Below the pieces are notes generated by a model. The model was not told the origin of the DNA. It ran no database searches and was given only the letters and a program-made list of their open reading frames with translations. From NCBI GenBank assembly GCA_051382305.1, contig JBBCAV010000119.1, forward strand, positions 1 through 17,402: DNA of 17,402 nucleotides, given 5' to 3'. Made by a program: the position numbers and the translations under genes. This document shows, one piece after another, positions 9,443-16,714 of the stretch. Source of the stretch: Bdellovibrionota bacterium FG-2. GTDB taxonomy: Bacteria; Bdellovibrionota; UBA1018. How positions within the stretch are numbered: the stretch's first letter is position 1; every line of letters starts with the position of its first letter.

Positions 9443-10534
9443 TTATGCGGCCTGTTTGACCGAGACAAATGACTCATCGGTTGCTTCCTGATTTGCTTGA
9501 ATTTGGATTGGACTCGGGCCGTCTTTGTAGAGCCAGTTCTCTATCTGCTGTTTGTAGTCGGCCAAGAATTCATTCGATGTTCTCCATCCCAGAGCTTTAC
9601 GTCTGCGCTTGTCATTCCTCCACTCACAGTGCTGTGAGAGGATCTTATTGAATGCCTCAAGACTCAGTGGTTTGATTCGATGGAAGAGCTCTTCATCGTC
9701 TTGCCGGTGGGATCTTTCGACCAAGCCTTGCAGTTCTTTTTCGCCCGGCGGGATCAGTACGTGGCGAATGCCGCTGCTCTCGCACAGTTGATCCAGAGCG
9801 TGCTTTTTAGGGTTATCCGCGTGTGAGACATACTTATTTGTGAACTCAATGCCATTGTCACTTTGAAGCCTGTATATCGTGAATGAGGCTGCTGCGATCA
9901 CAGCCATGATGAAGTCCTTCGTTTCACTCGGACCGTATGAATCATAGGCCTTTTTGAATGACCATCGTGAGGCGTGATCGACAAAATTATACACGTAACA
10001 CTTCTGTGCCTGAGGCAGGAGATGAGGCAAATGTTTTACATCCGTTTGGGTATGAGTTCCAGGTTGTTCAACGCGAACCACTCGCGTGTGCTTCTTCTTG
10101 ATCTTGCACGTTTTACGCACAAGCAGGCCCTTTTTCCTTAGGTATCGATTGATTTTGTATTGACTGATGTCAGTGTCACAGTCGTGTTTGAGATGGGCCT
10201 GAATGACCTCTGCTCCCCAATTGTAGAGCTTACGCCATTCTCGGATTCTCTTTGCTGTGTGGCCACGTATCACCGTTGCAGGGCGACCCGATGACTTATT
10301 CGGGATCAGCGCTTCGACCCCCCTTGACCGGTAGGCAGCTTCCCATCGATACAACGTGCGTCCCGTCGTACCCTGCCTCACCGCAATTCGCTCTCGATCT
10401 TGCTCCGTCGCAGGACCCCATGACTGACTGTGTTTAACGAGCTCAATCAGAGTCAAAAGTCTGACAACAACTCGCGGGTTTTCTTTTTGAAATCGCTTCA
10501 CTTCTTGACGCAAAACACTTAGCTTAAGATCCAT
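9443..10534 (-). CDS. IS481-family DDE transposase (HTH plus integrase core)
   Basis: TLYRWEAAYRSRGVEALIPNKSSGRP HTH, WGAEVI, PGTHTQTDVK, VDHASR, LQSDNGIEF, QGLVERSHR and RRRKALGWRT. CAGGAG RBS before ATG 10534 (MDLKLSV). Confidence 0.9.
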   Translation of the reverse strand: MDLKLSVLRQEVKRFQKENPRVVVRLLTLIELVKHSQSWGPATEQDRERIAVRQGTTGRTLYRWEAAYRSRGVEALIPNKSSGRPATVIRGHTAKRIREWRKLYNWGAEVIQAHLKHDCDTDISQYKINRYLRKKGLLVRKTCKIKKKHTRVVRVEQPGTHTQTDVKHLPHLLPQAQKCYVYNFVDHASRWSFKKAYDSYGPSETKDFIMAVIAAASFTIYRLQSDNGIEFTNKYVSHADNPKKHALDQLCESSGIRHVLIPPGEKELQGLVERSHRQDDEELFHRIKPLSLEAFNKILSQHCEWRNDKRRRKALGWRTSNEFLADYKQQIENWLYKDGPSPIQIQANQEATDESFVSVKQAA

Positions 10535-10605
10535 TTCAAGCTCCTGTTTTCTATGAGGGTTTAGTTGTATCAAACAAAACATCTCAGTGAATCAGGAGCT
10601 TGAAA
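10534..10605 (-). promoter_or_regulatory. Long hairpin sequestering the transposase Shine-Dalgarno and start
   Basis: Perfect 13-bp IR TTTCAAGCTCCTG (10534-10546) / CAGGAGCTTGAAA (10593-10605), with further imperfect inner pairing. On the transcript the 3' arm contains the SD and the A of the ATG. Confidence 0.75.
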
Positions 10606-10690: not shown

Positions 10691-10719
10691 CTAAAGTCCT
10701 GCATTCCGACCGCCGATAA
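10691..10719 (+). promoter_or_regulatory. Sigma28 (FliA/SigD) promoter
   Basis: CTAAAG at 10691-10696 (TAAA 10692-10695), 16-nt spacer, GCCGATAA at 10712-10719. Matches TAAA-N15/16-GCCGATAA and lies 10 nt upstream of ATG 10730. Confidence 0.8.
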
Positions 10720-10729
10720 GCCTCTAGGT

Positions 10730-12406
10730 ATGGGAAAACTCATCTTTCACGTCGATGATTCGTCCACGGCTACGCGTATGGCGGGCAATGTCTTTAAACA
10801 GCTTGAGCCGGATTGCGAGTTCAAGGGGTTTCTCTCGGGCGCAGAGCTTACCGCTGCGCTTGAGGTGGCGCCGGAGCTGCCGTGGATTATTTTTTCGGAT
10901 GTGAATATGCCCGGCATGAATGGCTGGGATGTTTTATCTTGGATCAAACGGCATCCCAAGTTTCACGTCATCCCAGTGGTCATGCTCACGGCAGAAGTGA
11001 GTGATGAGGATCGCGTCAGAGGACTGAAAGACGGTGCTTTTGAGTATTTGGGAAAACCTGCGACGGCTGCCCTTCTGCAATCGGCTCTCAAAAAGCGCGA
11101 AGAGCTGGGGATTGAATATTCGGCCTTGTTTCCCATTGATCAGGATTATGCCGAAGAAGGTTTGGATTTGATTTCGGAGTGCCATCGCTTCGTGGATCAA
11201 CTTGATGAAGCGGGAGTTAAAGAAATCTATCGCGCGTTTCACACCGTAAAGGGAGGTGCGAACTCACTTCAGTTTCCTGCGCTGGGTGCCTTTATGCATC
11301 ATGCGGAAGGGCTCCTAACGGCGATTCGAAACGGCAACCTTTTTGCCCTGCCGCAAACCAAGGAGCTTCTCTTTGTGATTTTCTCCTACGTCGAAGAACA
11401 GTGCGAGAAGATCAAGGCGAAAGTGCTTCTCGAGATGCCGCCCCAAAAACTTTTTGATGATATTACTTTGGTGAAATCAAATGTCGCGGCCGGCTGGAAT
11501 ATGGCGGGAGCAAGTGCCGTGCCGGTGGCAGCGGGAGCGCCCGAGGGCTCTCCTGATATCGCTAAAGTGAACAAGTCTGCCGAAGGGGGCGATCTTCCTG
11601 GAGGCGTGATCAGCCGTTCTTCAAGCAGCACGCGCTTGTCCAATGAAAAGCTTAATGAGATTCAGCTCAAATTTAAAAAAATAATGACCCACAAAGTGCG
11701 ACTCAGTTCTTTTGCGAACAAGCTCAAGGGCGAATTTTTTGATGAAGAGTTTCCCAATGACCTTTTGAAAATTGTGGAGGGACTTAATAACGACGCCATG
11801 GAAGTCATGGATTTTTTTATTTCGTTGCGGGTCGTGCCAGCCTCCCGACTTAAAATATTTTCTGAGCGGGTGGTGAGTCAGACGAGTGATCAATTAGGGA
11901 AACCTGCACGACTGGAGTTTAGAAGCGATGAAGGACTTGAGATCGATCAGGCGGTCGTGGAGTGCATGGAAGCGGGGCTTTTGCATCTTCTTCGTAACTC
12001 CGTGGACCATGGCCTTGAGGTGCTGGAGAAGAGAACCGCGGCCGGGAAGGATCCGGTCGGGTTAATCAAACTCAGCATTGAACGAAGCGGTGACGAGAAT
12101 GTCCTAGCGACGATTATCGATGACGGGGGCGGAATCAACGCTGAAGGACTTAAAGCGGCGGTCGCGAAAAAGAGTTTGATTGCCAAAGAAGTGTTGGAAA
12201 AACTCAAAGAAAAAGAAATCTACGAGCTCGTGTTTATTGATGGACTGTCTACCCGCGAAGAGGTTTCGGATGTCTCCGGCCGGGGCGTGGGACTGGGGGC
12301 CGTGAAGCAGAAGATCGTGGATATGGGTGGAAAAGTCGAAGTGGATTCGACGCTGGGTAAAGGCACGGTGTTCAATATTACATTACCGAGGATCTTCAGA
12401 TTATGA
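10730..12406 (+). CDS. Atypical CheA-like histidine kinase: REC - Hpt(P1) - short linker - divergent dimerisation (P3) - HATPase (P4), no CheW-like P5
   Basis: REC with VDDS, D57 (SDVNMPG), MLTAE and GKP; Hpt YRAFHTVKGGA (H171); N-box LLHLLRNSVDHGLE, DDGGGIN, VFIDGLST, DVSGRGVGL. The protein ends at GKGTVFNITLPRIFRL*, where P5 would start. Confidence 0.9.
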   Translation: MGKLIFHVDDSSTATRMAGNVFKQLEPDCEFKGFLSGAELTAALEVAPELPWIIFSDVNMPGMNGWDVLSWIKRHPKFHVIPVVMLTAEVSDEDRVRGLKDGAFEYLGKPATAALLQSALKKREELGIEYSALFPIDQDYAEEGLDLISECHRFVDQLDEAGVKEIYRAFHTVKGGANSLQFPALGAFMHHAEGLLTAIRNGNLFALPQTKELLFVIFSYVEEQCEKIKAKVLLEMPPQKLFDDITLVKSNVAAGWNMAGASAVPVAAGAPEGSPDIAKVNKSAEGGDLPGGVISRSSSSTRLSNEKLNEIQLKFKKIMTHKVRLSSFANKLKGEFFDEEFPNDLLKIVEGLNNDAMEVMDFFISLRVVPASRLKIFSERVVSQTSDQLGKPARLEFRSDEGLEIDQAVVECMEAGLLHLLRNSVDHGLEVLEKRTAAGKDPVGLIKLSIERSGDENVLATIIDDGGGINAEGLKAAVAKKSLIAKEVLEKLKEKEIYELVFIDGLSTREEVSDVSGRGVGLGAVKQKIVDMGGKVEVDSTLGKGTVFNITLPRIFRL

Positions 12407-12416
12407 GGCAAAGACT

Positions 12417-12833
12417 ATGAGCCAAAAAAGAATCTTAGTGGTGGATGATTCGGGGAGTCTGAGGCGAATCATCAAGAACTACCTTGAACAAGGGTTTCCG
12501 GAGGCGATTTTTTATTCCGCGGAAAACGGAGACCTGGCAGAACGGCTCATTCAAGAGCAAGCCGTTTATGGCGAGCCGATTGATGTTGTCATCTTGGATT
12601 GGATGATGCCGGATGTGTCGGGATATGAGTTTCTGAAGCGCATTCGAAGTGTCGCCGCTTTTTCGAAGCTGCCCAAAGTCATCATGTTGACGGCGGAAAC
12701 GGATCCGACCCAGGTCGAGGCCTGTTTGAAGTACAACATCGAAGCGTATCTCACGAAGCCGTTTTCGCAGCAGCAAATTATTGATGCCGTAAAGCATGTT
12801 CTAGCTGGAGAGGAGATGAAAAATGCCGTTTGA
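12417..12833 (+). CDS. Single-domain response regulator (CheY-like)
   Basis: ATG 12417 after GAGG. RILVVDDS, ILDWMMP, MLTAE and YLTKPF present; 138 aa. Confidence 0.9.
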   Translation: MSQKRILVVDDSGSLRRIIKNYLEQGFPEAIFYSAENGDLAERLIQEQAVYGEPIDVVILDWMMPDVSGYEFLKRIRSVAAFSKLPKVIMLTAETDPTQVEACLKYNIEAYLTKPFSQQQIIDAVKHVLAGEEMKNAV

Positions 12834-13752
12834 AGTAACCACGCAAACTGACTATCTCGTAGTGACCCTGAAGGGCGATTGTAATGGTGACGGAGCCGAT
12901 AAACTCGCGCCGGCCGCCGACAAGCAGCTCTTGGCCGGAGCGCTGAAGTACATCGTCGTTCAGTGTAGTGAATGCGGCGATATCGATCCGACCTTCATGC
13001 GGGTGCTGGCCATGCTTTACAAAAGGGGTAAGGAGCTGAACGGCAAGCTGTGCTTGGTACACGCAAATGATCGAATTCAGGAGGCCATTAAGCGCTCCGG
13101 CTTGGATCGAATCCTGCCGTGTAAGATGAGCTTAAGAGGCGCGCTCGTGGAGTTTGGTTTGGTGAAGGCTAAAGAGTTCGATGTGAACTTCATCAATCCT
13201 TTTTTGGCAGCGACGCAAAAAGTGCTTAAAGTCCAGTGTTTCTTGGAAACCACTGCGCAAAAACCGTTTATCAAGAAGCCCACCGATCCGCCACTTTTTG
13301 GGGATATCAGCGGGATTATTGGTCTGACCGCGGAGACTTTTAATGGGACGCTGGCGATTAGTTTTCCTGGGCCGCTGTTCTTGGTGCTTGCGAGTAATAT
13401 GTTTGGTCAGCCCTACAAAGAGATCACAAATGAGATCGTCGATTTGGCGGGCGAGCTTTCGAACATGATTCTCGGACAGGCGAAGATGGTGCTCAATCCT
13501 TTGGGGTATCAGATTCAGCAGGCGATTCCTTCGTGCGTGTGGGGGAAGGATCACAAAATCAAGCACTTTGGCGGCGGCGCGTGCGTCGTGATGCCATTTG
13601 AAACGAAGGCCGGAGTTTTTCACGTCGAAGTGATCAGTAACTCTGGAGTGCAAGAAAAGAAGCCAATGGCTGTGCCACCGGCTTCGGGCGGACCGGCTGC
13701 TCCGGCAGCACCCGCTGCGCCTGCGACTCCTTCTTCGGGAAAGGCTGCGTAG
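12823..13752 (+). CDS. cheX: STAS domain - CheX phosphatase fusion with a Pro/Ala-rich tail
   Basis: aa 1-113 are STAS-like (VVTLKGD...IDPTFMRVLAMLYK...GKLCL...IKRSGLDRIL). aa ~119-272 are CheX (FDVNFINPF, DISGIIGLT, GTLAISF, GELSNMILG with E-x-x-N, AIPS, PFET). GGAG RBS; overlaps the upstream gene by 11 nt. Confidence 0.85.
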   Translation: MPFEVTTQTDYLVVTLKGDCNGDGADKLAPAADKQLLAGALKYIVVQCSECGDIDPTFMRVLAMLYKRGKELNGKLCLVHANDRIQEAIKRSGLDRILPCKMSLRGALVEFGLVKAKEFDVNFINPFLAATQKVLKVQCFLETTAQKPFIKKPTDPPLFGDISGIIGLTAETFNGTLAISFPGPLFLVLASNMFGQPYKEITNEIVDLAGELSNMILGQAKMVLNPLGYQIQQAIPSCVWGKDHKIKHFGGGACVVMPFETKAGVFHVEVISNSGVQEKKPMAVPPASGGPAAPAAPAAPATPSSGKAA

Positions 13753-13754
13753 TT

Positions 13755-14156
13755 ATGTTGGAAACATCCTCGCGGATTTTGGTGGTTGACGATTCGTTAT
13801 CTCTGCGAAAAATCATGGCAGTCATGATTCGCGGGGGCGGATATCAAGATGTGATTGAAGCGGCAAACGGCGAAAAAGCTTGGGAGGTGCTCACGCAATC
13901 CGAAAAGCCGGTGAGTCTCATCGTTTGTGATTGGATGATGCCAGTATGCACGGGCTTGGATTTTTTGAAAAAGCTTCGTGCGGACCCGCGGTTTCAGAGT
14001 GTGCCGTTTTTCATGCTGACCGCCGAGGCGGACGATGAGCGAAAGGTTGAAGCGTTGGCGGCCGGTGCGACGGATTATCTCATGAAGCCATTTACGGCTC
14101 AGGTGTTGCGTGAAAAAGTGGCAGGGCTTTCCGCGCAGAGCGCGCAGGCGGCTTAG
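13755..14156 (+). CDS. cheY: CheY-like single-domain response regulator, close to canonical motor-binding CheY
   Basis: RILVVDDS, DVIEAANG, VCDWMMP, GLDFLKKLRAD, MLTAEA and AGATDYLMKPFTAQVLREK parallel enteric CheY. Starts 2 nt after the STAS-CheX stop. Confidence 0.85.
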   Translation: MLETSSRILVVDDSLSLRKIMAVMIRGGGYQDVIEAANGEKAWEVLTQSEKPVSLIVCDWMMPVCTGLDFLKKLRADPRFQSVPFFMLTAEADDERKVEALAAGATDYLMKPFTAQVLREKVAGLSAQSAQAA

Positions 14157-14178: not shown

Positions 14179-14215
14179 TTGACTTCACCCCGGATTTAAC
14201 CGCATAATCCGGGGT
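14179..14215 (+). promoter_or_regulatory. Sigma70 promoter with a perfect 10-bp inverted repeat; leaderless start
   Basis: TTGACT (14179-14184)-N18-CATAAT (14203-14208), with ATG 7 nt downstream and no SD. ACCCCGGATT (14187-14196) / AATCCGGGGT (14206-14215). Confidence 0.7.
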
Positions 14216-15382
14216 ATGGTCGGAAGAATTATAAGTCCTCTTAATAATAAGAGTTTTTTCCTATTTGGGGTCCGCGGATCCGGCAAAACAACCTATTTGG
14301 AACGTAAATTCGCGCCTGAACAGGCGCTGTTTATCGATCTGCTTAATCCCGAGGTGTTAGAGGAATTTGTTTTTGATATTGCCCGTTTCAACGCAATCAT
14401 TACGCAATCAGAGAATGCGAAGAAGATTGTTGTTGTCGATGAAATCCAAAAGCTCCCTGCTCTTTTGGATTGGGTTCAAATTCATATTCAGAAAGGCAAG
14501 CGAGTATTTGTACTTACGGGGTCGAGTGCTCGAAGACTGAAGCAAGTCGGGAGTAATCTATTGGCGGGTCGCGCTCTTGTGTATTCGCTTTTTCCATTCT
14601 CAACTTTTGAGCTCGGTGAGAAGTTTGATTTGGATATGGCGCTTAATTGGGGGAGTTTGCCCGACGCCTATTGTGCTGAATCAAGGGAGCACGCCAAGGC
14701 GTATCTTAGTGCTTATGTTATTATGTATCTCGAAAAAGAAATTCAACAAGAGCAGTGGGTGCGCAAAATTGAACCTTTCCGGCGTTTTCTGAGGATCGCC
14801 GCCCAGATGAATGGGAAAATAATCAATTATTCTGCTATTGCAAAAGATGTCGGTGTCGATGACTCCACTGTGAAGGGGTATTTCGAAATTCTCGAGGACA
14901 CCCTTTTGGGGTTCATGCTCCCTTCCTACGACAAGTCGGTGCGAAAATCTCAAAGGGTTGCCCCTAAGTTTTACTTTGTAGATCCTGGGATCAAAAGAGC
15001 GATCGAAAAAATGTTAGCCTTTCCGCTGGCTCCCCAAACAGGGGCCTATGGCGAAGCTTTTGAACACTGGATTTTTCTTGAGCTGACCAAGTTGATTGCC
15101 TATTGTCAGACCGACTGGTCTCTGAGTTATTGTCGGTCCCGTGATGATGTAGAAATTGATTTTATTATTGAGCGCCCTAATCAGCCTACGATCCAGATCG
15201 AAGTGAAATCAAAGTTTAAAGTTTCTGCGGCTGATGCGAAGGCCCTCGAGACTCTTGGAAAAGATCTGGACCCCAAAGCGACTCGATATTTGTTATCGCA
15301 GGATCCGCTGGCGCAGGAGTTGGGCTCTACGCATGCTCGGCTGTGGATACAGGGGTTGAGGGATATCTTCGGCGTGAAGTAG
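14216..15382 (+). CDS. AAA+ ATPase of the AAA_14/DUF4143 type (ATPase - HTH - PD-(D/E)xK-like C-terminus)
   Basis: Walker A GVRGSGKT, Walker B VVVDEIQK, LTGSSAR, LAGRA, WGSLP, HTH INYSAIAKDVGVDDSTVKGYFEIL, PKFYFVDPG, GEAFEH and EIDFII...IEVKS. Confidence 0.92.
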   Translation: MVGRIISPLNNKSFFLFGVRGSGKTTYLERKFAPEQALFIDLLNPEVLEEFVFDIARFNAIITQSENAKKIVVVDEIQKLPALLDWVQIHIQKGKRVFVLTGSSARRLKQVGSNLLAGRALVYSLFPFSTFELGEKFDLDMALNWGSLPDAYCAESREHAKAYLSAYVIMYLEKEIQQEQWVRKIEPFRRFLRIAAQMNGKIINYSAIAKDVGVDDSTVKGYFEILEDTLLGFMLPSYDKSVRKSQRVAPKFYFVDPGIKRAIEKMLAFPLAPQTGAYGEAFEHWIFLELTKLIAYCQTDWSLSYCRSRDDVEIDFIIERPNQPTIQIEVKSKFKVSAADAKALETLGKDLDPKATRYLLSQDPLAQELGSTHARLWIQGLRDIFGVK

Positions 15383-15429
15383 GGGATGTAACAGTATGAA
15401 GGTGGCTTTATACTTTTCACAGTGATGCC

Positions 15430-16714
15430 TTAAAGGTGTCTTGTGTCGGAGAGTAGATCCTGCGCCCGCTGAAGCGCCAGTGCCGGATCGTCACCAAATC
15501 GCCTGGACAGAAGTTCAATCACTTCTTCGGCAGCAAATACACGCCCTGATTGTCGCCCCGTTCGCTCACGTACAATTTTCCGCGAACGAAGTTGCTCGCT
15601 TGCGCGACTTGCAGCGGGAGGGCTGACGGCGAGCTCTTGGCTCAATTGCTTGGCGGTAAAGATAGGGTTTGACAGTAACCAGGTGAGAGCCCGTGCCGAA
15701 GCAGAATTCTCTCGGAACGTTCCCCTTTTGAGCCAGAGGGCAGGGAGTTTCTCAATCCAGCTCTTGGTTTGTTCGGCTTCGCGGTTTGATGCAAAAAGTG
15801 CATCTGCGATGAGCATCGACGATGGGCCCATAATTGAGTTTCTTTTGAGCTTGTTGAAGGGCCCGAACGTACTCTCTTTTTTCTGCTTCGATGTATCCGG
15901 AGAGATAGATCGGGAGTTTTCCTGAGCAAGCCATTTGCAGTGCCAAAAGCATTCTGCCTACGCGGCCATTACCATCTGGAAATGGGTGAATGGCTTCAAA
16001 ATGGGAATGTCCTAGCGCCATTCGGACGGCAAGGGGTAAGCCCATGCCTGCATCCCCGAGTTCAATCGTTTCCAGGTCCGACATCCAATTCATAAAATCT
16101 TTAAGGCAGCGATGGACGTGTTTTGCGGGTGTAGGGTTATAGATAGAGTCTTCAGGTCTGCCAAGGGGCCCTATCCAGACAACGCTCCCTGGTTTGTTTG
16201 GTTCGCGCAGGTTTCCCGGGCGTCCTTTATAGTCGGGGTCTTTACTCATGACCGCTTTATGTAGCCGACAGACGAGATCTGCTGTAAAGATCGTGGCCCC
16301 TTTTTTCAGTGCCGGGAGGAATTCATGCTCTAGTGCCGTGGCATACCCTAATACAGACGCACGTCCCGACTTGCTCTCGTTTTGGTCGTAAACTTCTGCT
16401 GGAGTAAGAATGTGATCTATTGTTGAAAAAGTGCGTTCCATGCGAGAAGACTCGACTGCCTCGCGTCGGACATAGAGGGACGAAACAAGCTTATCCATTG
16501 TGGTGGCGAGGGCGGCAGTCGGTAGCTGTTCAATGAGTCGATTGGCTTTTGCAAGTGCCTGAGTCGGAAGTCCCTTTGGGCGTGTCTTGGGTACCGGAGG
16601 CGGGACCACAAACCACATATTCTTGTAGGTGGGGTCATCAACCTTCTCGACTCCGCAGGGCAGATCGGCAGTATATTTGCGTTTTAGCGTGGGGTGTAGG
16701 TCGTCGCGAGTCAT
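15430..16714 (-). pseudogene. Fic-family protein with C-terminal HTH, split by one frameshift near 15814 (true pseudogene or sequencing indel)
   Basis: EAVESSRME, HSHFEAIHPFPDGNGRVGRMLL and YVRALQQAQ in ORF 15752-16714. The reading ...YGPIVD continues as LIADALFAS...PIFTAKQLSQELAVSPPAASRA...ERTGRQSGRVFAAEEVI in the frame ending at 15430. Removing 1 nt gives a 427-aa ORF. Confidence 0.85.

Follow-up and report, generated by a model that had tools for sequence, protein, structure and literature searches.

A conserved three-gene cassette encoding a P5-less CheA-type kinase, a receiver and a STAS-CheX protein in Bdellovibrionota

Can a CheA-type kinase that ends before P5 belong to a working signalling circuit, and would such a circuit stand apart from chemoreceptor arrays? 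The question is raised by a 17,402-nucleotide (nt) stretch of DNA from Bdellovibrionota bacterium FG-2 (GenBank assembly GCA_051382305.1, contig JBBCAV010000119.1), referred to here as the window, which is the entire contig of a genome (G000) that is 85% complete. Four forward-strand genes of the window encode a P5-less CheA-type kinase (P0001, 558 amino acids, 10730-12406), a cassette-specific single-domain receiver (REC138; P0002, 138 residues from the ATG at 12417, 12417-12833), a STAS-CheX fusion (P0003, 309 residues, 12823-13752; Pfam STAS 4-105 and CheX 162-260) and a further single-domain receiver (REC133; P0004, 133 residues, 13755-14156; one Response_reg match). An initial annotation had described tightly coupled genes for a REC-CheA without P5, a CheY, a STAS-CheX protein and a second CheY, with three intact phospho-sites and with no CheW, MCP, CheR or CheB. 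The open reading frames (ORFs) confirm the spacing, which consists of a 10-nt gap, an 11-nt overlap (-11) and a 2-nt gap, the Pfam scan bears out the domains, and direct reading shows the conserved phospho-site residues in all three receivers. Inspection of the window ORFs by eye and a Pfam scan of 10 of them turned up no recognisable cheW, mcp, cheR or cheB. The locus holds a real, conserved cassette of three genes, whose overall logic has precedent in the class III histidine kinase (HKIII) systems; its distinctive features are a retained P3, a putative receiver gate, the STAS-CheX fusion and a sigma-28-type promoter.

The kinase is composed of an N-terminal receiver (10730-11104; D9, D10, D57, T87, K109 and the family-specific H79), a CheA-type Hpt or P1 domain (11117-11494; H171, K174, H190 and E193), a linker, a divergent P3 dimerisation hairpin of one strand and two helices (11627-11824) and a P4 ATP-binding domain (11825-12388; N423, D464-x-G466-x-G468, F502 and an SGRGVG box), all on the forward strand. 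Pfam assigns Response_reg to residues 5-120, Hpt to 146-208 and HATPase_c to 417-553; the same scan gave no CheW and no H-kinase_dim match, and the P3 hairpin is not detected by it. The best NCBIfam matches are CheA models, with scores far under the cut-offs. The predicted structure (mean predicted local distance difference test score, pLDDT, 80.8; predicted template modelling score, pTM, 0.49) comprises the receiver, a helical Hpt, a disordered linker in the place of P2, a strand-helix-helix P3 with pLDDT of about 70-79, and P4, and its best structural matches are CheA. The protein ends in PRIFRL followed directly by the stop codon. Since the family profile aligns unbroken to residues 240-509 of Escherichia coli CheA and to P3-P4 of Thermotoga maritima CheA, this stop sits at the P4-P5 hinge.

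The same architecture recurs in a family of about 45 full-length REC-Hpt-P3-P4 proteins. None of the 15 full-length relatives returned by a word search (34-89% identity) has CheW, and after a profile search of 1.84 billion representatives the family alignment holds 45 rows of 481-600 residues; the first ESM Atlas match is a 57-member cluster represented by a 698-residue REC/Hpt/HATPase protein, also without CheW. The four Hpt residues that are catalytic in CheA are kept almost throughout (H171, K174 and H190 in 44 of 45 rows, E193 in 45), as are those of P4 (N423, D464, G466, G468 and F502 in 45/45, G517 and G519 in 44/45). D57 of the receiver is invariant in the 14 cassette kinases, and a family-specific loop, W-x-K-R-H-P, lies at residues 70-83, with H79 present in 44/45 rows. 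The end point is equally constrained: measured from the column of the last P4 proline, 34 of the 45 kinases stop exactly five residues past it and none ends more than 17 residues away, with a terminal PRxFxL motif conserved at R554 (32/45), F556 (30/45) and L558 (34/45). This shared end rules out an assembly or frameshift artefact. The family is soluble, with no membrane segment in 45 rows and a largest 19-residue hydropathy of 1.57, and the CheA-P3 profile scores at least 10 bits in 12 of 15 family rows, with P0001 alone at 3.3 bits. Between G000 and the same-genus genome G001, the proportion of nonsynonymous differences in the kinase (pN) is 0.079 and that of synonymous differences (pS) is 0.72, near saturation, and the sequence comparison indicates that P4 is under strong purifying selection. 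Degenerate members are few (P0159, which has no G2 box, and the divergent kinase of G104). By its residues the kinase appears catalytically intact and is predicted to be active; the inactive kinase of which the initial annotation had warned is not what a family with this residue pattern and a common P5-less end would suggest.

Conservation extends to the gene neighbourhood. Among 18 loci centred on orthologous STAS-CheX genes, 15 have the order kinase-REC138-STAS/CheX, and in the other three a contig end falls between kinase and receiver (G053), the contig ends within the receiver (G111) or the kinase is absent (G010). REC133 follows in just 3/18 loci, so that the four-gene order proposed at the outset gives way to a conserved unit of three genes. 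This core order stood up to the neighbourhood check set by the initial annotation, with no match to the genome's own CheW, used as query, adjoining the cassette in the loci searched (the wider loci L031-L036 were checked by eye only). Flanking genes vary between cassette loci. Of 116 genomes of the order, 14 have the full kinase and 16 have a REC138 orthologue, each adjoining STAS-CheX; two more genomes with the kinase came from a 401-genome sample of the phylum in which three candidates per genome were scored. Two named records that carry the cassette (L038, L039) are Bdellovibrionota. Pattern scans of sequence collections gave two family loci among 160, the G2-box pattern having mostly drawn canonical CheAs, and are uninformative on range.

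REC138 keeps D10, D11, D61, T92 and K114, together with a family-specific TAET-x-x-x-Q stretch in helix 4, in 15-16 of 16 orthologues. Against the canonical CheY of the genome, REC138 has 34% identity, whereas REC133 has 39% and scores far higher. P0003 consists of a STAS domain (1-116), a CheX domain (119-273) and a Pro/Ala-rich tail. The CheX domain matches solved CheX structures (Z 21.5, root-mean-square deviation (rmsd) 2.1, 148 residues aligned to 3hm4) and its E211-x-x-N214 motif is invariant in 17/17 orthologues, and the STAS domain folds like SpoIIAA (1tid; Z 19.0, rmsd 1.6, 114 residues aligned). In anti-anti-sigma STAS proteins a serine that follows an Asp is phosphorylated. No conserved phosphorylatable serine was found here, where positions 55-57 vary freely over 17 orthologues and read D-P-T in P0003; a classical partner switch is therefore unlikely. 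A second STAS-CheX type of 279-289 residues was also observed (L264, L266, L253, L263, L255), adjoining CheY genes or a canonical che operon in three loci, so the fusion is not peculiar to the cassette. Six further CheX-like matches in G000 (C285, C45, C305, C280, C323, C89) include a tandem CheX-CheX protein and longer N-terminally fused forms.

Upstream of the kinase lies a match to the sigma-28 (FliA)-type promoter pattern, TAAAG-N15-GCCGATAA (10692-10719, forward strand), the one match in the window against 0.01 expected. Its -10 box ends 10 nt ahead of the kinase start codon, which predicts a nearly leaderless transcript. A promoter in front of the operon, as initially annotated, is therefore supported in sigma-28-like form; a sigma-70 scan found no site upstream of the kinase, and a sigma-70-like site (14179-14208) does precede the downstream ATPase gene, as annotated. 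A sigma-28 score of at least 9 out of 13 was found before 15 of 16 orthologous kinase genes and of at least 10 before 10 of 16, compared with 6.3% and 2.5%, respectively, of 2406 long ORFs in G000. The first base of the -10 box is 12-23 nt from the start codon in 14 of the 15 scoring genes, whose transcripts too would be nearly leaderless. A FliA gene is present in G000 and in 4/5 other genomes tested, and the canonical cheA of G000 has a similar site. Of the flagellin genes, the strict pattern missed most and the scored scan found sites before 3/5. In Bdellovibrio bacteriovorus, 92 of 140 attack-phase promoters carry TTAAG-N16-CCGATA, and many of these promoters are non-flagellar (PMC3627812). 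The cassette promoter fits this motif; the mapped regulon is that of a different lineage of the phylum, and the cassette is a predicted member of its counterpart here. The motif would place the cassette in the motile-phase programme, if it is expressed as predicted, without naming a target.

The nearest described systems are those of the HKIII class, which Adebali et al. reportedly named in 2017 and in which a CheA-type kinase that lacks CheW, bears sensory domains and has no dimerisation domain works with CheX and a single receiver. The cassette is alike in joining a CheA-type Hpt and ATPase without CheW to a single-domain receiver and CheX in one operon. It differs in that the kinase has no sensory or membrane domain and carries an N-terminal receiver instead, keeps the P3 hairpin, has its CheX partner fused to STAS, belongs to a clade of its own and stands behind a sigma-28 promoter. 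The cassette would thus work like an HKIII system while lacking two HKIII features, the sensory domains and the absence of P3, as well as the CheW domain by which CheA is defined. The initial annotation did not recognise the combination as a described class; its logic is that of HKIII systems, so it is not a new kind of circuit. A passage citing the HKIII work refers to chemotaxis-free genomes and to a pilus marker (PMC6501615), and in these respects the cassette is again alike, as it may occur in genomes without chemotaxis genes and pilT is present. Our sensor-type comparison set consists of 12 P5-less kinases from the same order plus one metagenome, chosen by us and distinct from the published HKIII set. 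In 8/12 of them Pfam detects a sensor, HAMP or kinase-input domain, and in family kinases only REC precedes Hpt. Sensor-type P5-less kinases of the same order (L272, L277, L279, L275) include Ser/Thr kinase-AAA-GAF-Hpt-ATPase giants of about 2000 residues, a form that binds cyclic nucleotide monophosphates (cNMP) and an Hpt-ATPase-CheX fusion.

Comparison with CheA itself, the class II histidine kinase (PMC10782961; structures 6s1k, 4xiv and 1b3q), shows the same order of P1 with its catalytic tetrad, P3 and P4; unlike CheA, the cassette kinase has no P5/CheW and no P2, has an N-terminal receiver and has no adjoining cheW or mcp. In PMC10782961, all of 13,673 CheAs have P1, P3, P4 and CheW, and P3 always occurs with CheW; the CheW domain was part of the definition of that set, which therefore leaves out P5-less proteins. 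Chemosensory systems in the Wuichet-Zhulin sense need a chemoreceptor, CheA, CheW and CheY, a set that the cassette does not hold. The REC-Hpt-P3-P4-CheW(-CheW) CheAs of Bdellovibrionota (L207-L216, L224-L232) share its four N-terminal domains and its phylum and are the next-best matches to the family profile, and they differ in retaining one or two CheW domains. Such N-terminal-receiver CheAs are widespread in Bdellovibrionota; N-terminal receivers are described as rare in PMC10782961. The CheS-CheA-CheY1 system of Sinorhizobium meliloti, as described in PMC12654446, is alike in placing a STAS domain, tied to signal termination, in a CheA pathway with two CheY-like proteins. CheS is unlike P0003 in being a stand-alone STAS protein of an array-bound CheA, whereas the cassette STAS domain is fused to CheX and its binding to the kinase is putative. 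No description of a REC-Hpt-P3-P4 kinase with REC138 and STAS-CheX was found in the literature searched, which covers few subscription papers, and the passages seen of 10.1101/2022.05.07.491035, PMC8396549, PMC9239204 and PMC10767990 contain nothing on this architecture. In three trees the kinase family forms one clade (27/28, 15/15 and 15/15 rows) with support of 96-100 in the Shimodaira-Hasegawa-like approximate likelihood ratio test (SH-aLRT), long-branch family rows having been left out of two of them. Its wider placement meets long branches and leaves the deep forks open, and descent from the Bdellovibrionota REC-CheA-CheW kinases by loss of P5 is allowed by these trees, not shown.

Whether the cassette operates apart from receptor arrays is addressed most directly by its carriers. 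Five were tested for CheW and CheA, four of them chosen since earlier searches listed no canonical CheA there. Three of the five have several CheW domains and CheAs. The other two, G042 (92% complete) and G112 (71% complete), gave no CheW-domain match and no CheA except the P5-less kinase, and they keep the cassette, flagellins, FliM and pilT. These two genomes support array independence without proving it, since both are incomplete. Of the soluble, array-independent circuit initially proposed, solubility, intact sites, the lack of an adjoining CheW in the cassettes examined and two carriers in which no CheW domain was found therefore stand. Entry of inputs through the kinase REC or the STAS domain, and motor bias as the output, are putative. 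FliM is found in 112 of the 116 genomes of the order and cannot for that reason single out the motor as the target of the cassette; pilT, present in 5/5 carriers tested, is probably general in the phylum and so a weak marker. G000 itself encodes a canonical CheA operon and a CheA with two CheW domains and a receiver, has eight matches to methyl-accepting chemotaxis proteins (MCPs) and seven to the CheX query, including that of the cassette, and has spare CheW-domain genes. One of these (C321:2-682, reverse strand, L296), cut by the contig end, joins Hpt directly to CheW with no kinase domain; it was tried as the partner of a split CheA and rejected, as a full-length match exists only in G000 and G001 of the 116 genomes and does not follow the cassette. 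A separate short frame (C96:43-546, reverse strand, L294) has only the last P4 strand and a CheW domain and is perhaps a broken cheA.

We favour, at about even confidence, an array-independent kinase-receiver-phosphatase switch of the swimming or attack-phase (FliA) programme that is gated through the receiver of the kinase itself; kinase activity, direction of transfer, gate, STAS partner and output are all predicted from sequence. FliA would transcribe the operon along with motile and attack-phase genes. CheA without P5 can still autophosphorylate, although the literature searched for this gave nothing relevant. The kinase is predicted to dimerise through the retained P3, to bind ATP in P4 and to phosphorylate H171 without receptors or CheW. 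Because the kinase has neither a sensor domain nor P5, the on/off gate is probably the receiver at its N-terminus, with D57 phosphorylated either by another kinase or, as feedback, by its own Hpt. The phosphoryl group would pass to REC138 and be removed by the translationally coupled STAS-CheX, a pairing evident from the gene coupling, with the STAS domain acting as a non-phosphorylated binding module that may place or gate the CheX phosphatase. REC138-P would then act through its conserved alpha4-beta5-alpha5 face on a motile-phase target. No candidate for that target is probable on its own: the odds for the flagellar switch are roughly one in three, those for the type IV pilus or surface machinery slightly lower, and some other target is as likely as the flagellar switch. 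REC133 may serve as an optional extra CheY-like output or sink.

Several observations weigh against this switch. Canonical CheA is also present in 13/15 intact carriers, and of the two genomes without a CheW match G112 has no MCP match but G042 has two, perhaps because a contig is missing. Neither an input kinase nor an output target was found for the cassette. D57 is Asp in 37/45 rows of the wider family. In G010, which is 89% complete, REC138 and STAS-CheX occur without the kinase between flanks that by eye resemble those of G006; the kinase of G104 is REC-less as well as divergent, and G134 has a kinase without REC138 and STAS-CheX. Given these exceptions, the three genes need not be coupled and the REC gate can be dispensed with. 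The promoter evidence is also softened, in that the sigma-28 background is higher in the signalling-rich loci of relatives (13.6% of 176 ORFs at a score of at least 9, 7.4% at a score of at least 10), the scan was scored against a general sigma-28 consensus with start codons chosen by alignment, and the counts come from kin genomes and are therefore given no p-value weight. Beside the exception in G010 we note that its locus (L257) and that of G006 (L036) have apparently common flanks, with a kinase before REC138 only in G006, and that REC138 of G010 has no match to the strict sigma-28 pattern in front of it.

Four other explanations compete with a receiver-gated switch. We think it unlikely that the cassette is a plain HKIII system that has a receiver where the others have a sensor domain and works as they do, perhaps on type IV pili. 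Its partner set is the same (a single receiver plus CheX) and also stands beside sensor-fused kinases at L269 and L275, pilT is found in all five carriers tested, and one branch of a free P4 tree, albeit with support of 7, has all 27 P5-less rows on the same side. The kinases themselves differ, however: none of 12 sensor-fused rows reaches even 4 bits with the CheA-P3 profile that scores at least 10 bits in 12/15 family rows, the His-to-N-box distance is 223-288 in the family versus 152-169 in 6/7 measurable sensor-fused rows, and the family Hpt profile gives medians of 36-38 bits for CheAs versus 22 for sensor-fused kinases. A tree joining the family with REC-CheA-CheW kinases gains 8.4 in log-likelihood over the free tree, with a p value of 0.67 in the approximately unbiased test (p-AU), and is not decisive. 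Only tentatively, and with clearly less than even confidence, would we suggest a CheA-derived class apart from HKIII: a natural P5 deletion of a Bdellovibrionota REC-CheA that keeps P1-P3-P4, is switched by its receiver instead of an array and, with a STAS-gated CheX, sets an attack-phase phospho-switch, also where chemotaxis has been lost.

The cassette might instead drain phosphate, the Hpt taking the phosphoryl group from flagellar CheY-P and handing it to REC138, where STAS-CheX would destroy it, much as with CheA, CheS and CheY1 of S. meliloti; to this we give a rather low probability. Such a role would suit the retention of REC138 and STAS-CheX without a kinase in G010, the second STAS-CheX type beside canonical CheY genes (L264, L266), the binding of CheA by the STAS protein CheS, which according to PMC12654446 steers transfer between two CheYs, and the frequent service of CheA-fused receivers as sinks mentioned in PMC10782961; ATP-binding motifs kept in 43-45 of 45 rows and strong purifying selection on P4 would, however, be unneeded in a pure relay, and G042 and G112, which gave no match to a canonical CheA, retain the cassette. 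Less probable again is a split CheA, in which the kinase would be one half that joins receptor arrays in trans, for example by docking of its PRxFxL end on a CheW-type protein. The conserved end motif does stand at the position of the P4-P5 linker of E. coli CheA, split CheAs are already known according to PMC10782961, and G000 has spare CheW-domain genes, the Hpt-CheW protein among them. No CheW domain was found in G042 or G112, however, that protein is confined as a full-length match to two genomes, and the last Leu codon often shares bases with the start codon that follows, in overlaps of 4 nt, which can fix the Leu without a docking role. A decaying, truncated cheA left by a local deletion beside an insertion sequence (IS), or an assembly error, is scarcely credible, despite the IS481-type transposase directly upstream and the few degenerate family members, for about 45 proteins at 27-57% identity share an end point and catalytic residues, and the cassette occurs in unrelated gene contexts without IS. 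With pN also far below pS, decay is refuted for the family as a whole.

The surroundings of the cassette in the window are of mixed character. The IS481-type transposase gene (rve, HTH_32; 9443-10582, reverse strand) lies directly 5' of the cassette promoter, and a same-genus genome has other genes there. On the 3' side follows an AAA_14/DUF4143 ATPase gene (in the region 14216-16714), the one preceded by the sigma-70-like site, and a Fic-family gene (15752-16714, reverse strand) overlapped by a short downstream ORF (15430-15831, reverse strand) that may be a frameshifted Fic tail; a fragment of the same Fic gene lies near the G001 cassette (L031:6020-6511). Two overlapping small ORFs at 384-988 on the forward strand resemble, by eye, a ribbon-helix-helix antitoxin and a MazF/PemK-type toxin.

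Class III systems already display the logic of the cassette, members of the family are rare, and most of the carriers seen are uncultured. CheA is generally regarded as dependent on its CheW domain. Within the bounds just given, a conserved P1-P3-P4 family that ends at the P4-P5 hinge offers a natural test of how the CheA core might switch in the absence of arrays, and its parts are small and soluble, so that the circuit could be rebuilt in vitro. The family may also serve as a model for a step between CheA and the sensor-fused class III kinases. Finally, its sigma-28-type promoter would link the family to the attack phase of predatory bacteria, a programme about whose signalling little has been learned.

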